Assembly: GCA_902778145.1 (NCBI GenBank)
Contig: CACYWW010000005.1
Location: 65,013-129,012 of the forward strand
DNA: 64,000 nt
From: an uncultured Ruminococcus sp.
GTDB lineage: Bacteria > Bacillota > Clostridia > Oscillospirales > CAG-272
Direction of reading: 5' to 3'
Translations under genes and position numbers: made by a program
The notes under the pieces: model-generated
What the model saw: the letters and a program-made list of their open reading frames with translations, nothing else
Database searches by the model: none
What the model was told of the DNA's origin: nothing
Shown: positions 30,923 through 60,671 of the stretch, one piece after another
Layout: each line of letters begins with the position of its first letter
How positions within the stretch are numbered: position 1 is the stretch's first letter

Positions 30923-32038
30923 ATGTATCACGTAACGTTCAAAGGGCTTGAGAACGTATCGTTCGAATTTTCGCCCGTCGCCTTCACGGTATTCGGAAAG
31001 CCGATATACTGGTACGGCATCGTTATCACCATAGGTATCATCCTCTCCGCGCTTTACGCGTTCTGGCGTGCAAAAAAGCTCGGTATCAAGATCGACGACA
31101 TGTATGATTACGCAATATTCATAGTGATATTCGGCGTCATCGGAGCGCGGCTCTATTACGTTCTGACGAATTTGTCCGATTACCGGACCTTTAAGGACGT
31201 TATAGCCATTTGGAACGGCGGACTTGCGATATACGGCGGCATAATTGCCGGCGTGATAACCGTGATCGTCGTATCAAAGGTAAAGAAGATAAAGGTACTG
31301 CGCGTCCTTGACGCGATTGCGCCGTCCGTGATGATCGGTCAGATCCTCGGCAGATGGGGCAATTACTTCAATCAGGAGGCGTTCGGCTGCAATACGACGC
31401 TTCCGTGGGGCATGAGATCGTACGTCGTCCAGGGCACCGGCATCGGCGAGAACCTTCAGGGTACTGTTGAATACCTCGGTGAATACGTACAGAAAAAATC
31501 GGACGAGATACAGGCGCTCGGCATGAAGATAGATCCGCAGGGCTTCGTCCACCCAACGTTCTTATACGAGGGCATCTGGAACCTTATCGGGTTTATCATA
31601 ATAAATATATTCTATAAAAAGCGCAAATTCGACGGGCAGATGTTTCTCATGTATATCACCTGGTACGGACTCGGACGCGGTTTCATTGAAATGCTGCGTA
31701 CGGATTCGCTTTTCATCCCGGAAACGCATATAAGGATCTCGATGGCGGTCGGCTTCCTCTGCTTTATCGCGGGGACCGCGCTTCTGATCGCGCTTGCCGT
31801 AAGAGCCGGAAAGGATCCCGAGGCTGTTTCGTCCTGTGCGTACTACGACGAAAAAGCCGAGAAAATGAAGGCTGAAGCCGAAGCCAAGGCAAAAGCGGAA
31901 GCAGAAGCCGAAGCTGAAGCAGAAACAGAAACAGAAACGAAAACAGAAACAGAAGCCGAGCCCGAAGCGGAAGCGGAAGAAGAAACCAAGCCCGAAGCCG
32001 AGAAAACACCGGAGGACGATCATGGCAATGATAATTGA
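30923..32038 (+). CDS. lgt: prolipoprotein diacylglyceryl transferase with acidic low-complexity C-terminal tail
   Basis: 'YGIVITIG', 'GARLYYV', 'GGLAIYGG' and 'GRWGNYFNQEAFG' are hallmark Lgt blocks. The last ~70 aa are an (A/E/K/T/P) repeat. Confidence 0.9.
   Translation: MYHVTFKGLENVSFEFSPVAFTVFGKPIYWYGIVITIGIILSALYAFWRAKKLGIKIDDMYDYAIFIVIFGVIGARLYYVLTNLSDYRTFKDVIAIWNGGLAIYGGIIAGVITVIVVSKVKKIKVLRVLDAIAPSVMIGQILGRWGNYFNQEAFGCNTTLPWGMRSYVVQGTGIGENLQGTVEYLGEYVQKKSDEIQALGMKIDPQGFVHPTFLYEGIWNLIGFIIINIFYKKRKFDGQMFLMYITWYGLGRGFIEMLRTDSLFIPETHIRISMAVGFLCFIAGTALLIALAVRAGKDPEAVSSCAYYDEKAEKMKAEAEAKAKAEAEAEAEAETETETKTETEAEPEAEAEEETKPEAEKTPEDDHGNDN
31858..31995 (+). repeat. GAA/GCC-rich hexanucleotide-type low-complexity repeat encoding the Lgt tail
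   Basis: gaagccgaagccaaggcaaaagcggaagcagaagccgaagctgaagcagaaacagaaacagaaacgaaaacagaaacagaagccgag... Confidence 0.8.
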
Positions 32039-42813: not shown

Positions 42814-43338
42814 ATGGGATTTTTATCTAAACTGTTCGGCGGCAGCAAAGACGCCGAAAAAACAGCTCTCGATCTGCTCAAGAATCTTATGAATTCCGAT
42901 AAAAAGGAAGATCGTAAAGAGGAAAAGAAGCAGGAAGAAGCGCCCGCGCCGGCGCAGGACCCGAGCCCCGTTTATGACAGCACCGATTCCGGCCCCTCCG
43001 GTTTTTCATGGGGTGAAAGAATGCCCGCGGAAGAAAACCAGTACAACTACAACGGCACCTACAGAGAATACTTTGAGCATATCTTCCGCGACGACTTTTC
43101 ACAGTATCAGCTCAAAGCCGAGCCTCAGCCCGGCGGCAAGCGCATAGTGTACACGCTGTTCGACCTCGGGCGTACCGTTTGCGTCGTGGAGGTCATGCAT
43201 CAGGGCAGCGACTCAAAGAAGCTGCGCGAGAAGTGCCGGAGAAACGGTATAGGCTACTGCCGTTTCTACCACAACCATGACGGCTGGTGGAACACGCGTG
43301 AATACGTAGTCACCCGTATCAAAGAAGCCATAGGCTGA
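42814..43338 (+). CDS. hypothetical protein: disordered K/E/P-rich N-half, compact C-terminal domain (weak PD-(D/E)xK-like pattern)
   Basis: RBS AAGGAGA. The C-terminus is 'YFEHIF..F..Y.L....IVYTLFDLGRTVCVVEVMHQ.....KLREKCRRNGIGYCRFY'. Confidence 0.6.
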   Translation: MGFLSKLFGGSKDAEKTALDLLKNLMNSDKKEDRKEEKKQEEAPAPAQDPSPVYDSTDSGPSGFSWGERMPAEENQYNYNGTYREYFEHIFRDDFSQYQLKAEPQPGGKRIVYTLFDLGRTVCVVEVMHQGSDSKKLREKCRRNGIGYCRFYHNHDGWWNTREYVVTRIKEAIG

Positions 43339-43347
43339 CAAAACACA

Positions 43348-43489
43348 GAAAAAAGCGGAAAGAGAACGCCACGTGCGCCTGCGGAGGACCAGGCACGGAC
43401 GATAACGGAGCTTCGCAGGCAGCCCGTCCGTGTACGGCCCGGTACATCCCGTAATTATACGGGCTTTAAAGTCTTCTCTTTCCGTTTTT
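43348..43489 (+). other. inverted-repeat-bracketed structured spacer immediately upstream of the RT (candidate ncRNA)
   Basis: gAAAAAAGCGGAAAGAGAA (43348-43366) pairs with TTCTCTTTCCGTTTTT (43474-43489), 16 pairs with one bulge. The 107 nt between are GC-rich and contain hairpins, for example cccgta-atta-tacggg (43448-43463) and cacggacg/cgtccgtg (43394-43401 / 43425-43432). Confidence 0.35.
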
Positions 43490-43501
43490 ATATTTTTGAA
43501 A

Positions 43502-44689
43502 ATGTCACTGCTCGACAAGCTGAGAGATCCCGCAGTATGGGAAAAATTCTACGAATATAAATCCGGGCTCTCATGCCCCGGATCATACCTGAAGGAGCTG
43601 CGCGGCTTCATCGACCGGGCGGGTTATCTGCCCGTCTGCGATACGATCGATTCGGGCGGCGTTTTTCCGCTGCCGAAAAAAAGCGTTATAAGCAAGGTCG
43701 GCTCCGAAAAAAAGCGCACGGTCTACACGTACCCGGACGACGAGAACACGACCCTGAAGCTGCTCACGCATCTTCTCCTCCGCAGGTACGACGGACTTTT
43801 CTCCCCCGGCCTCTACTCCTTCCGTCCCGGAAGGACGGCAAAGGACGCGGTGCGGCGGCTGAGAAGGATTTCCCGCGGGATGTACAGCTATAAGACCGAC
43901 ATACACGATTATTTCAACTCAATACCGCTTGACAGATTTATCCCGCTTCTCCGCTCGGTGACCGGGGAAGACCCGCGTTTGTTCTCTTTCCTCTCTTCTC
44001 TTTTGCTTGAAAGCCGCGTGACAGACCGCGGCAGGGTGACGGAGGAACAAAAGGGGATCATGGCGGGAACGCCGCTGTCCGCGTTTTACGCGAATCTTTA
44101 CCTTTCGGAGCTCGACCGTCATTTCGACGGCGTACCGTACGCGCGGTATTCAGACGACATCATAGTCTTCGCAAAGGACAGGAACGAGCTTGACGGACAC
44201 GTTGAATACATAAATTCCGCGCTCTCCCGCGCGGGTCTCACGGTCAACCCGAAAAAGGAGACGTACGGGGAGCCGGACGAGGGCTTCGTTTTTCTCGGCT
44301 TCATCTGCTCGGACGGCGTGACGGACATCGCGCCGGTGACCGTTGTCAAGCTGAAGAAGAAAATGCGGCGCAAGGCGCGTTCGCTCGTCCGCTGGTACAA
44401 CAGGACGGACTCCGATCCGGAGCGAGCCGCCGCCGCTTTCATCCGTGTCTTCAACCGCAAGCTCCTCGACGACCCGCAGGGCAACGAGCTCTCCTGGAGC
44501 CGCTGGTTCTTCTCAGTCATAAACACGGACAAAAGCCTGCACGAGATCGACCTTTACGCTCAGGACTGTATACGGTACATAATATCCGGTTCGCGTAAAA
44601 AAACGCGCTTCCGTGTGACGTACGACGACATGAAGGCGCTTGGGTACAGAAGCCTTGTGCACGAATACCATAAGGATTCAAAATCATGA
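43502..44689 (+). CDS. stand-alone reverse transcriptase (RNA-directed DNA polymerase), class unresolved
   Basis: RT motifs are 'YSFRPGRTAKDA', 'TDIHDYFNSIP', 'GIMAGTPLSAFYANLYL', catalytic 'YSDDIIVFA', 'GLTVNPKKE' and 'GFVFLGF', followed by a ~130-aa basic thumb-like tail. The start is uncertain: ATG 43502 has no obvious SD, and GTG 43430 is the alternative. Confidence 0.85.
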   Translation: MSLLDKLRDPAVWEKFYEYKSGLSCPGSYLKELRGFIDRAGYLPVCDTIDSGGVFPLPKKSVISKVGSEKKRTVYTYPDDENTTLKLLTHLLLRRYDGLFSPGLYSFRPGRTAKDAVRRLRRISRGMYSYKTDIHDYFNSIPLDRFIPLLRSVTGEDPRLFSFLSSLLLESRVTDRGRVTEEQKGIMAGTPLSAFYANLYLSELDRHFDGVPYARYSDDIIVFAKDRNELDGHVEYINSALSRAGLTVNPKKETYGEPDEGFVFLGFICSDGVTDIAPVTVVKLKKKMRRKARSLVRWYNRTDSDPERAAAAFIRVFNRKLLDDPQGNELSWSRWFFSVINTDKSLHEIDLYAQDCIRYIISGSRKKTRFRVTYDDMKALGYRSLVHEYHKDSKS

Positions 44690-44783: not shown

Positions 44784-45638
44784 ATGAGATCATTTGACGG
44801 AAAAGAGCTTTACACATACCTTTGGGACGACGTGAAGGATCCGGTCGGAGTCGTACAGCTCTGCCACGGCATGTGCGAACATCTGGGCAGATACGACGGC
44901 TTTGCGCGGTTCCTCAATAAAAACGGATACATAGTTTTCGGTGACGACCACAGAAGCTACGGCAAAACGGACAACAACTCGGGCTACTGCGACGGCGAAT
45001 ACGTGGGCGACACGGTCAGAGACCTCGTATTCATAAACGAATACCTCAAGAAGGAATACGGTCTTCCTATCACGTTCATAGGCCACAGCTACGGAAGCGT
45101 ACTGGGTCAGAGGTTCGTACAGCTCAACACGGGGATAAAGAACGCCGTGCTTACCGGAACGCTGACGATACCGCACGCGCTCTGCCGTCTCGGACAGGGC
45201 GTCATGGCGCCGGTAAAGGCGATAGCGCCGCATGCGGGCGTCGCGCTTTCGAGCGCGAAATTCCCGGACGAGGACGAGGCACCGGATTCGTTCCTCACAA
45301 AGGATACGGAGATCAGACGTCAGTACGCCGAGGATCCGCTCTGCGGCGGAAAATCGTCGATGAGATATTACTACGGCTTTATAAAGCTGATGGGTGACGC
45401 GACAAAAAAGGCGAACGTCAAGGCGATCCCGGACAGTCTTCCGATAGGGATATTCAGCGGCAAAGACGACGGTATCGGGCATTTCGGCAAGGACCCGCGA
45501 AAGGTGTATGAGACGTACAAAAAGTACGGCAAGAACGCGTATCTGAAGCTCTACGAAAACGACCGGCACGAGATCCTGAACGAGACTGACAAGGATCGCG
45601 TGATGAACGACATCCTCGAATTCATAAAAAACAACTGA
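44784..45638 (+). CDS. alpha/beta hydrolase (lysophospholipase / monoacylglycerol-lipase-like)
   Basis: 'CHGMCEH' oxyanion region, nucleophile elbow 'GHSYGS', and C-terminal 'DRHEILNE' His. Start at ATG 44784 with GGGAGAAAG upstream. Confidence 0.8.
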   Translation: MRSFDGKELYTYLWDDVKDPVGVVQLCHGMCEHLGRYDGFARFLNKNGYIVFGDDHRSYGKTDNNSGYCDGEYVGDTVRDLVFINEYLKKEYGLPITFIGHSYGSVLGQRFVQLNTGIKNAVLTGTLTIPHALCRLGQGVMAPVKAIAPHAGVALSSAKFPDEDEAPDSFLTKDTEIRRQYAEDPLCGGKSSMRYYYGFIKLMGDATKKANVKAIPDSLPIGIFSGKDDGIGHFGKDPRKVYETYKKYGKNAYLKLYENDRHEILNETDKDRVMNDILEFIKNN

Positions 45639-46012
45639 AAAAAACGCGGTCTTGCGGTGTACTTCGTAAGGAAGTACACCGCAGCTAAATTCGCTTCGCG
45701 AGCTAAATTATGCTTCGCATAGCTAAATTCGCCTTGCGGCGAGCTAAATTGGGCTTCGCCCAGCTAAATTTGCTTCGCAAGCTAAATTCGGCTTTGCCGA
45801 GCTGAAAAAGGCGAATTTAGGGACAATTTAGCTATCGAACGCAGTGAGATAATTTAGCTGCGAGCAACTGCGAGCAATTTAGCTGTTTTCAAAATCATTC
45901 TTAATATCAAAGCGATTAGAACAAGCTGAAAGAGAATAACCCACTATAACACTTTCAATAATAGAAAGATGTCAGAGTGGGTTTGTTTCTTCCTTACGCA
46001 GCCTCTCCCTTG
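45638..46012 (+). repeat. composite structured repeat element, copy 1 (GNRA hairpin + opposed AGCTAAATT/mini-hairpin arrays + AT-rich tail + terminal hairpin)
   Basis: 12-bp hairpin gcggtgtacttc-GTAA-gaagtacaccgc (45654-45682). Six exact AGCTAAATT at 45683, 45701, 45721, 45742, 45762 and 45780. Three exact AATTTAGCT at 45825, 45851 and 45876. Terminal hairpin aacccact.../...agtgggtt plus a T-rich tract (45938-45993). Confidence 0.9.
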
Positions 46013-46022
46013 CCGCGTTTTT

Positions 46023-47699
<1,677 letters not shown>

Positions 47700-60183: not shown

Positions 60184-60604
60184 AAAAAACGCCGACTTGC
60201 GGTGTACTTCGTAAGGAAGTACACCGCAGCTAAATTCGCTTCGCGAGCTAAATTATGCTTCGCATAGCTAAATTCGCTCCGCGAGCTGAATTCGGCTTCG
60301 CCGAGCTTGCAGGCAAATTTAATTTAGCTGAAGCCGTGAGGCTTCAATTTAGCTATACGCCGACAGGCGTATAATTTAGCTGCCGCAAAGCGGCAATTTA
60401 GCTGCCGCAAAGCGGCAATTTAGCTATCGATGGCAGTGAGATAATTTAGCTGCGAGCGACTGCGAGCAATTTAGCTGTTTTCAAATTCATTCTTAATATC
60501 AAAGCGGTTAGAACAAGCTGAAAGAAAATAACCCACTATGACACTTTCTCTATTCGAAAGATGTCAAAGTGGGTTTGTTTCTTCTTTACGTCGCCTCTCC
60601 CTTC
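60184..60604 (+). repeat. composite structured repeat element, copy 2
   Basis: Same 12-bp GNRA hairpin (60199-60227). Three exact and one 1-mismatch AGCTAAATT (60228, 60246, 60266, 60284). Seven exact AATTTAGCT (60321, 60346, 60373, 60395, 60417, 60443, 60468). Same AT-rich tail and terminal hairpin plus T-tract (60530-60588). Confidence 0.9.
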
Positions 60605-60671
60605 CGGCAAATTTTTGCGCCGGACGTATGATAAATATTTTCAATACGGGCAAGTTTTTTTTGAAATACTA

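Follow-up and report, generated by a model that had tools for sequence, protein, structure and literature searches.

What is the run of short self-complementary sequences at positions 45692-45799 of this stretch, and is it kept as DNA or as RNA? The window, that is, the whole 64,000-nucleotide stretch of an uncultured Ruminococcus sp. (contig CACYWW010000005.1), had previously been read from its letters, and this sequence-only reading proposed that the spacers between repeats form mini-hairpins whose pairing outlasts changes in their sequence, that the bottom strand repeatedly spells GCGAAGC, and that the element may act as single-stranded DNA. Positions 45692-45799 proved to fall in the forward arm of a non-coding element 358 nt long (45654-46011, plus strand), of which the window contains a second copy at 60199-60603 (plus strand). 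Its repeat unit is a 9-nt linker, AGCTAAATT, followed by a mini-hairpin of 3-6 bp. The element is ordered as a 5' hairpin, a forward array of AGCTAAATT plus mini-hairpin, a centre, a reverse array of AATTTAGCT (the reverse complement of the linker) plus mini-hairpin, and a 3' hairpin module.

In copy 1, the plus strand reads from a left flank (45638-45653, beside the hydrolase stop codon at 45636-45638) consisting of an A-run with the 5' arm of a host intrinsic terminator (AAAAAAACGCGG), a t, and CTT (45651-45653), the left 3-nt direct repeat. The left end of the element itself is a conserved 5' hairpin, hp0 (gcggtgtacttc-gtaa-ggaagtacaccgc, 45654-45682), which recurs identically at the related loci L027, L029, L075 and L117 and in a covarying version at L001. 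Six exact copies of AGCTAAATT follow from 45683 (forward array, 45683-45799), each with one 9-12-nt self-complementary spacer after it, then the turn that joins both arms (centre, 45800-45824, AGCT-gaaaaa-GGCGAATTT with a degenerate reverse linker), and then three copies of AATTTAGCT with two tandem-G.A hairpins (atcgaacgcagtgagat and gcgagcaactgcgagc; reverse array, 45825-45884). The 3' module (45885-46011) contains a long hairpin (45938-45983) and a T-rich tail, is terminator-like in both directions, and ends in ...gcctctccCTT, the right direct repeat. Beyond it lie a g and the 3' arm and T-run of the host terminator (CCGCGTTTTTT, 46012-46023), adjoining the pyrG stop codon (46023-46025, minus strand).

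Copy 2, also on the plus strand, aligns with copy 1 over hp0 and the ~125-nt 3' module, and the main difference is the number of units. Its left flank (AAAAAACGCCG-a-CTT, 60184-60198) again holds an A-run, a terminator arm and the left direct repeat, and its hp0 (60199-60227) is identical to that of copy 1. Four forward linkers, the fourth being AGCTGAATT, alternate with four mini-hairpins (60228-60303); the centre is AGCT-tgca-GGCAAATTT (60304-60320), and the reverse array (60321-60476) has seven AATTTAGCT 9-mers and six hairpins, with an exact unit duplication at 60373-60425 and a DNA folding z of -5.35. The 3' module (60477-60603) has its T-rich-tailed long hairpin at 60530-60575 and ends in ...cgcctctccCTT, and the right flank (60604-60616) reads cCGGC-aaaTTTTT, the 3' arm and T-run of the host hairpin.

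No tRNA or tmRNA was found inside the element, and promoter scans gave no support within the window copies. The mini-hairpins were rejected as intrinsic terminators because no T-run follows them and scans lent no support; terminator-like features are confined to the outer stems of the host and to the long 3' hairpin. A CRISPR array was likewise dismissed, the repeat being only 9 nt (against 23-50 nt) and the spacers being 7-18 nt and self-complementary.

The spacers given in the sequence-only reading were all confirmed. On the plus strand, the forward spacers of copy 1 (linkers 45683-45788) are cgcttcgcg, atgcttcgcat, cgccttgcggcg, gggcttcgccc, tgcttcgca and cggctttgccg, those of copy 2 are cgcttcgcg, atgcttcgcat, cgctccgcg and cggcttcgccg, and the reverse spacers of copy 2 are gaagccgtgaggcttc, atacgccgacaggcgtat, gccgcaaagcggc (twice), atcgatggcagtgagat and gcgagcgactgcgagc. 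When a spacer was scored as folding if it formed at least three consecutive Watson-Crick pairs from its ends, 16 of the 18 window spacers folded, compared to a mean of 0.43 and a maximum of 4 over 2000 shuffles, in agreement with the claim that almost all are self-complementary. The two reverse spacers per copy that seem non-palindromic are hairpins with tandem G.A appositions (gc-GA-gc-loop-gc-GA-gc). That every spacer differs turned out to be wrong: gccgcaaagcggc is an exact tandem duplicate (60373-60425), and the first two spacers are common to both copies. The folding energy of 45683-45803 is not significant (z of -0.9 and -0.8 by strand, DNA parameters) under nearest-neighbour models that lack bonuses for extra-stable mini-hairpins, so the evidence consists of positional regularity and covariation rather than predicted stability.

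Differences within the window are between paralogous units, and orthologous covariation was taken from related loci. A pattern scan of one genome per species placed the element in a large family from Clostridia of the rumen and gut, in Oscillospirales-type metagenome-assembled genomes (MAGs): many matches fell in MAGs of Ruminococcus, Oscillospiraceae, Acutalibacteraceae, Faecousia and others, with scattered chance matches elsewhere. Plasmid and phage collections gave no match, and IMG/VR yielded only two real copies, both behind tRNA genes. Across the family, copies are many and unit numbers vary, the commonest layout having four forward and four reverse 9-mers (4+4). Forty-five elements were parsed and oriented by their asymmetric centre (hairpin 4, A/CGCT, 4-6 nt, GCGAATTT). 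Among their distinct spacers, 62 of 78 forward (79%) and 53 of 85 reverse ones (62%) fold from their ends compared to 2-3% after shuffling, so these further copies do not show the chance-level pairing that would have spoken against the hairpins. Most reverse-arm failures are again gc-GA-gc-loop-gc-GA-gc hairpins, with G.A appositions outnumbering C.T by 47 to 1 on the sense strand, where G.U also outnumbers A.C (8 to 1).

When 27 canonical elements from MAGs of rumen and gut Clostridia were aligned, the local hairpins were paired in 93.1% of cells, compared to 68.2% when shuffled and 31-46% in slid controls. Double-sided changes occurred in 26 of 34 pairs, and 206 cells were compensatory where 59 were expected, a count reached in none of 500 shuffles. 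The proposal that the hairpin rather than its sequence is selected or generated thus receives strong, family-wide support from the covariation test that the sequence-only reading had called for. Stems are almost perfectly Watson-Crick with few intermediates, and G.U is rare (11 of 842 cells). Hairpin types specific to a position are kept across many MAG species, namely cgc..gcg at position 1, gaac/gagc-aa-gttc/gctc at position 2 and a tandem-G.A hairpin at reverse position 2. The unit period ranges over 16-26 bp, both inside single elements and from one element to another, and arrays grow via tandem duplication of the linker-plus-hairpin unit, as seen at 60373-60425 and at L014, L078 and L109.

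The linker behaves differently from the hairpins. The predicted 9-bp helices between forward and reverse linkers are 95% paired through conservation alone, with no compensatory change and with every variant cell breaking the pairing, and they were ruled out as covarying structure. Taken together, mini-hairpins are maintained by compensatory substitutions and the 9-mer is maintained as sequence. Since the hairpins covary while the forward:reverse 9-mer pairs never do, selection acts on the structure of the hairpins and on the sequence of the linker, the 9-mer being read and not just paired. Locally, the final T of each linker is paired with the initial A of the linker after it, and this pair switches to G-C (UA 20 / GC 6 and UA 16 / GC 10).

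Other linker flavours with matched arms exist, including AGCGATATT/AATATCGCT and AGTGATATT/AATATCACT, sometimes in tandem with the AGCTAAATT flavour within one intergenic region. The loci of these other flavours, L106 1820-2230, L100 1240-1460, L001 7730-8000, L028 6650-6760 and L054 2940-3040, carry the two pairs just named as well as AGTTATATT/AATATAACT and TATATCGCA. Flavours are constant at AG (positions 1-2), A (5 and 7) and TT (8-9) and variable at positions 3, 4 and 6. The 9-mer of the window consists of two palindromic tetranucleotides, AGCT-A-AATT (45683-45691 and all linkers). Across the flavours, the second base of the 3' hexamer is invariably A and the sixth T, as in a -10 box. The window 9-mer also contains TAA (AGC-TAA-ATT), so that with variable spacer lengths the forward-only arrays have stops in all frames; such arrays, of 10-13 units, sit directly 3' of gene stops and 5' of the next ribosome-binding site (RBS) at L078 3627-3876, L045 4014-4231 and L022 6046-6242. 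A resemblance of linkers to primase trinucleotides (CTA, TTA) or to nick sites of rolling-circle replication fails across flavours and was dropped. Kissing between forward and reverse loops, or copying of reverse hairpins from forward ones, found no consistent complementarity on inspection.

The loops have a strict polarity. On the plus strand, forward-arm loops read T-N(1-2)-C and reverse-arm loops G-N(1-2)-A. When units from all arrangements, including reverse-then-forward and forward-only arrays (up to 13 units), were oriented to read AATTTAGCT, 119 loops were G..A and 2 were T..C; the rule also holds in the reverse-then-forward arrangements by themselves. Loop polarity therefore follows the linker, G..A loops lying on whichever strand reads AATTTAGCT (minus in forward arrays, plus in reverse arrays). 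On this strand the triloops are GAA (27), GCA (13), AAA (10), GTA (8) and GGA (6), with all four GNA present, the tetraloops are GNRA and GNYA in about equal numbers with CTTG occurring 9 times, GCGAAGC appears in 15 spacers compared to none for GCTTCGC, and the pair closing the loop is C:G in 85 of 94 cases (90%). The more stable strand accordingly switches between the arms (34 vs 1 and 34 vs 4 with DNA parameters, 29 vs 5 and 36 vs 6 with RNA parameters).

GCGAAGC was indeed found on the minus strand (GCTTCGC on the plus strand) in four of the six copy 1 spacers and three of the four copy 2 forward spacers. The remark about the bottom strand is a special case of the general rule, because G..A loops track AATTTAGCT on both strands; it holds for forward arrays but is not fixed to the minus strand, since reverse arrays carry these loops on the plus strand. 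Similarly, the description of the loops as GNRA or GAA-type was right in placing G..A loops on one strand, but GACA is GNNA rather than GNRA. The AATTTAGCT strand thus shows the G-N(1-2)-A loop with 5'C:3'G closure that defines d(cGNAg) and d(cGNNAg). Loops of the c-GNA-g and c-GNNA-g families, with any middle bases, are extra-stable in DNA, while functional RNAs strongly prefer GNRA. The extra-stable d(GCGNAGC) mini-hairpins were reportedly described by Hirao and by Yoshizawa and co-workers in 1997, and the d(cGNNAg) loops are said to come from work by Nakano and co-workers in 2002. The loop repertoire of the element, which has exactly this motif and closing pair, presumably matches that of the extra-stable DNA mini-hairpins, with the difference that the latter represent a chemical property and not a biological system.

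The surroundings of the element bear marks of insertion. Each window copy occupies the loop of an intrinsic terminator, with one CTT of a direct repeat on either side. At four loci, complementary arms specific to the locus stand between the A-run and the T-run (CGCGG/CCGCG, GCCG/CGGC, CCCG/CGGG and CCTCGC/GCGAGG), and direct repeats like target-site duplications mark the junctions (CTT/CTT at both window copies, TC/TC at L029, TA/TA at L075); these repeats may be of the IS200/IS605-like kind in which the target equals the right cleavage site. Removing the element from L075 leaves AAAAAAA-CCTCGC-GTAA-GCGAGG-TTTTTT, a textbook bidirectional terminator. The arms around copy 1 adjoin the stop codons of the convergent hydrolase and pyrG genes. 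Plain terminators without the element were found at three orthologous hydrolase loci (81-87% identity), one of which has the same order of reverse transcriptase (RT), hydrolase and pyrG with only 107 nt between genes. Presence/absence polymorphism and near-identical copies in different contexts are as expected of miniature inverted-repeat transposable elements (MITEs); the rumen Ruminococcus MAG RUG14256 has four loci, and one of these differs very little from the copies in the window. It is common for MAG contigs to break off within an element. The junction arms and repeats, the element-free orthologous loci, the near-identical copies and the contig breaks together indicate a multi-copy element that has moved recently, that enters the loops of terminators and that carries a terminator-like hairpin of its own.

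Terminal inverted repeats were not found, the element ends GCGGTGTAC... and ...GCCTCTCCC being non-complementary. With regard to replication-strand bias, the window shows a flat GC skew and genes in both orientations. Three metagenome matches to the pattern of an empty site were unrelated hairpins. Contigs with that pattern (L224 11000-11450, also L225 and L226) carry a different repeat (ggagaggaggagtaacggagcgatacgcagctttcgcggctcttacggtaaccgcg...) flanking small terminator-like hairpins, unrelated to the window.

The closest described family is the Gut-1 motif (RF01706), rated an RNA by its discoverers, typed as sRNA in Rfam, and described in the discovery paper only as present in human-gut sequences (Weinberg et al. 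2010, PMC2864571). It was the one known RNA family matched within the element: its covariance model matched the window at 33.8 bits (45682-45754) and 31.1 bits (60227-60297), below the gathering score of 50 (E-values of 4.7e-05 and 3.1e-04 in small searches), and none of 14 related loci gave a gathering-level Rfam match. The architecture of the element nevertheless aligns end to end with the model, with a linker of GCUAAAU versus GUGAAAU or GUGAUAU, and the element has the features by which Gut-1 was defined, at least three short hairpins, a conserved 7-nt A/U-rich linker and stem covariation. It shares with Gut-1 the short hairpins, C-UUC-G-type loops, conserved A/U-rich linker, covariation and origin in gut Clostridia-type metagenomes, and differs at three of nine linker positions. 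The Rfam model has only three forward hairpins and is described without a reverse arm, strand polarity, or a terminator or gene association. The published Gut-1 seed sequences, when viewed with their flanks (Stockholm file), have the same full architecture as the window element: one seed shows a tRNA 3' end, a terminator, AGUUAUAUU/AGUGAUAUU plus hairpin four times, GCGAAUAU, and AAUAUCAC plus hairpin four times, while another shows a gene stop, a covarying version of the window 5' hairpin and then the arrays. Because the same full layout occurs with another linker in these seeds, the element is a sister family of Gut-1, whose Rfam model covers no more than three forward hairpins out of a much larger unit. 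The searchable literature held neither the 9-mer in a relevant context nor text on Gut-1 beyond the discovery paper, and the terminator-loop insertions, the polarity rule and the gene link described below are, as far as we have checked, new observations.

Neighbouring genes are mostly unrelated housekeeping genes. The first linker is always preceded by a hairpin; at 12 of 46 loci this hairpin terminates an intact tRNA (ten different) or tmRNA (two) gene that has the same orientation as the element. Upstream protein genes are co-oriented with the element in 30 cases versus 8, as are all adjacent tRNA and tmRNA genes. Fragments resembling tRNA 3' ends (..ggttcgagtcc..cca, gaaaaaa, terminator) occur where ARAGORN finds no tRNA, 70 nt upstream of the element at L065, L076 and L114 and also at L100, L106 and L112, and modules of gccagaaaaaa plus terminator are repeated between tandem elements; both may be traces of insertions or duplications that recurred at tRNA trailers.

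The only recurrent neighbour is a four-helix-bundle protein of the PF05635/TIGR02436 family ('23S rRNA IVS', for intervening sequence), whose gene is the downstream open reading frame (ORF) in 6 of 32 loci and was found by tblastn in 8 element loci, with its ATG 22-50 nt past the last reverse linker. Both loci that were fetched through this protein rather than through the DNA pattern have a promoter (TTGAAT-17-TATAAT and TTGGTA-18-TAGAAT), a hairpin, a canonical 4+4 element, an RBS and the ATG; similar promoters lie upstream of the element in six other loci, and the full layout from promoter and hp0 to RBS and ATG recurs in L074, L063, L041, L095 and L096. Judged by this layout, the element is certainly placed to be transcribed. 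In promoter-type loci hp0 overlaps the -10 box, and a transcript started there therefore cannot hold a complete hp0. The genes concerned (L087 2225-2581, L233 1501-1872 and L241 1501-1869; proteins P0121-P0240) have a 4+4 element before them and a conserved 'gcatctaaa...ttataat' module after them, a module that directly follows the element in gene-less copies. There are thousands of homologues, >90% identical to each other and found for the most part on contigs <1.5 kb, which suggests that the gene is a multi-copy, recently spreading cassette. Relatives of the protein in the PDB were deposited with five chains.

What form, then, is selected? The reading we prefer, to which we give a probability of roughly 40%, is that the element is a non-autonomous mobile element of the kind of repetitive extragenic palindromic (REP) sequences and REPINs, with single-stranded DNA as the selected form. 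Its functional unit would be a single-stranded 9-mer beside an extra-stable c-GNA-g or c-GNNA-g mini-hairpin, on the strand spelling AATTTAGCT, with the hairpins keeping the linkers exposed and in register. The opposed arrays would let either strand snap back into a rod, with the 9-mers paired and the hairpins protruding, and a putative enzyme specific to each linker flavour would recognise the units so as to copy the element, or transfer it, into hairpin loops that are exposed or to sites beside terminator hairpins. The element would supply its own terminator-like hairpin and form the leader of the four-helix-bundle gene, and transcripts containing it (gene leaders and trailers) would be structured by-products that host or cassette could exploit. 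We infer a single-stranded form, and favour DNA because one rule, AATTTAGCT plus a c-GNA-g/c-GNNA-g hairpin, covers units on both strands, because the loop repertoire and the very short stems suit DNA mini-hairpins, because G.U is rare and hp0 can overlap a -10 box, and because insertion without terminal inverted repeats and into hairpin loops resembles that of elements acting on single strands. The suggestion of the sequence-only reading that the element acts as single-stranded DNA is favoured by loop repertoire, both-strand use, -10-box overlap and insertion signature, and, as the sole answer, is countered by the transcription-ready placement and by the lack of a DNA-processing enzyme among the loci examined.

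Several observations weigh against this preference. No transposase, HUH or other DNA-processing partner was found in the element loci examined, whose neighbours are mostly housekeeping genes; specifically, no tblastn match to IS200/IS608 TnpA (Y1/HUH) was found in the window or these loci, a weak test limited to these sequences. A pattern scan did not recover an exact empty site, the orthologous terminators having diverged. Strong promoters lie just before the element and an RBS with ATG some 22-27 nt after it, orientation follows the upstream genes, and Rfam curators treat the sister motif Gut-1 as RNA. Sense-oriented forward-only arrays have their stable hairpins on the template strand; supposing that genes and replication fork point the same way, this strand does not serve as template for lagging-strand synthesis. 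Nearest-neighbour energy differences between the strands are small (0.15-0.67 kcal/mol). The DNA-versus-RNA reading of the loops rests on the chemical literature, and tandem G.A and GNRA, GAA and CUUG loops are also good RNA motifs.

A structured RNA is a serious possibility, though still short of probable. The element would then be a sense-strand leader (of the four-helix-bundle gene) or trailer (of genes and tRNAs), folded through the 9-bp forward:reverse helices into a rod with side hairpins. Such a rod would lend transcripts stability or insulation, or else provide a multivalent binding platform, for example for autoregulation by a pentameric four-helix-bundle protein, in keeping with the five-chain PDB relatives. 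Positional evidence for such a role is strong: the promoter-to-ATG layout in the protein-fetched and five other loci, the terminator-like, U-rich-tailed hairpin that closes the window subfamily on its 3' side, and the co-orientation with upstream genes and with every adjacent tRNA and tmRNA. The weak match to RF01706, rated RNA by its discoverers, also fits, as do the excess of G.A over C.T and of G.U over A.C on the sense strand of the reverse arm and the whole-element folding z of -7.4 (-7.8 for L087). The antisense strand, however, folds too (z of -6.6), and the long-range helices do not covary. An RNA would need two separate selective reasons, one for the U..C loops of its 5' arm and another for the G..A loops of its 3' arm, and the sense RNA of forward-only arrays would carry only the less stable version of each hairpin. 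Dominant triloops and the parity of GNYA with GNRA are unusual for RNA, G.U is very rare, stems as short as 2-3 bp (acgaagt) and loops of only two bases are borderline for RNA, and an hp0 overlapping the -10 box cannot be complete in the transcript.

Three further accounts are considerably less probable. An unlikely but far-reaching one is that the arrays are single-strand DNA recognition modules of an undescribed gut-Clostridia cassette that targets hairpin loops (terminators, tRNA/tmRNA trailers and, elsewhere, rRNA helices) with an Avd-like four-helix-bundle partner, possibly via cDNA of the sense transcript, a cDNA having the c-GNA-g hairpins on the product strand; this account would give a function to two orphans, Gut-1 and PF05635 outside diversity-generating retroelements (DGRs), and an origin to rRNA intervening sequences. 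Slightly more doubtful is a mechanical origin, in which intrastrand templated repair or snap-back synthesis during unit duplication generates the hairpins and compensation is a by-product of array growth. Units do arise by tandem duplication (60373-60425; L014, L078, L109), and stems are near-perfect with few intermediates, but stem repair would not produce the conserved loop identity and C:G closure, tandem G.A appositions persist without being 'repaired', and position-specific hairpin types are conserved across many MAG species. Most improbable, in our estimate, is an array of duplex DNA sites in which the 9-mers bind a protein in the manner of iterons (a regulator, a partition or replication protein, or a transposase at subterminal sites) and the palindromic spacers are incidental. 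Conservation of the same 9-mer in both orientations without covariation, the matched-arm flavours, the 4+4 symmetry, the proximity of promoters and the two palindromic tetranucleotides would all suit such sites; the spacing of 16-26 bp varies and so allows no helical phasing, the 206 compensatory spacer changes and strand-polar loops are left unexplained, and the many copies per genome occur in unrelated contexts with no match in plasmid or phage collections.

For the preferred reading of a mobile element acting as single-stranded DNA, the closest working analogy would be REP/REPIN with its RAYT enzyme. Like REP, BIME and REPIN sequences, the element consists of multi-copy extragenic hairpin units on both strands in an inverted arrangement able to snap back, has several flavours per genome that lie between genes and at terminators and are passively transcribed, and presumably relies on single-strand recognition of a hairpin with an adjoining conserved short sequence. 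The analogy fails at the palindrome: REPs conserve it in each genome, whereas the spacers here differ within an array and between loci and the linker is what is conserved. The units are also 16-26 nt in 4+4 arrays as opposed to 35-nt REP doublets, and no RAYT or Y1 transposase was found in the element loci examined. BOX elements of Streptococcus pneumoniae (boxA-boxBn-boxC) similarly combine conserved end modules, a variable internal repeat number, strong secondary structure and MITE-like spread, but their 45-nt units are unrelated and have neither the linker-plus-variable-hairpin design nor opposed arrays.

Insertion into or behind a palindrome is shared with IS1397/ISKpn1 (REP loops), class C group II introns (behind terminator hairpins) and IS200/IS605. 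Elements of the IS200/IS605 type also have short or no target duplications and lack terminal inverted repeats, and an orientation bias is common to hairpin-targeting elements; the present element differs in having no transposase, RT or ribozyme component inside it, and its insertion mechanism would be deduced from four junction loci only. The 23S rRNA intervening sequences with a PF05635/TIGR02436 ORF resemble it in that the same protein family is recurrently beside it and that both sit in hairpin loops of structured RNA. In the element, by contrast, the inverted arms lie together upstream of the ORF, the targets are terminators and tRNA flanks rather than rRNA helices, and the window copies have no PF05635 ORF.

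Gut-1 has been an orphan in Rfam since 2010, known as three hairpins from human-gut metagenomes, and here emerges as one flavour of a much larger modular family of rumen and gut Clostridia. For this family a complete layout can be given, along with loops of strictly polar strand use, a link to terminators and tRNA trailers, signs of mobility, and as recurrent partner the four-helix-bundle '23S rRNA IVS protein' known in DGRs. Should the units act as DNA mini-hairpins, nature would be using the d(GCGAAGC)-type motif on a large scale, and the mobile elements that target hairpin loops would gain a new case; should the units act as RNA, they would represent a new multivalent design of leader or trailer. 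In either case the elements break assemblies and adjoin strongly expressed genes, and thus matter for MAG quality and annotation.

Upstream of copy 1, the plus-strand region 42814-44689 is a candidate defence module of the DRT type. It comprises a COG2852-type RT-associated protein (42814-43338; PADLOC RTasCOG2852, 1.5e-59), a UG26-class reverse transcriptase (43430-44689; PADLOC RT_UG26, 8.8e-164) and, between the two, an RT-5 RNA motif (RF03026, 43373-43477, 87.7 bits). The sequence-only reading had raised the possibility that the element is an RT product, but a link to this adjacent UG26 RT/RT-5 module is not supported: the syntenic locus L227 has the RT and keeps the same gene order without the element. 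Elsewhere in the window are an FMN riboswitch (RF00050, 8480-8596, minus strand, 80.8 bits) and an imperfect GAAGCA hexanucleotide repeat of 18.5 copies (31874-31984) within the ORF at 30923-32038 (plus strand).

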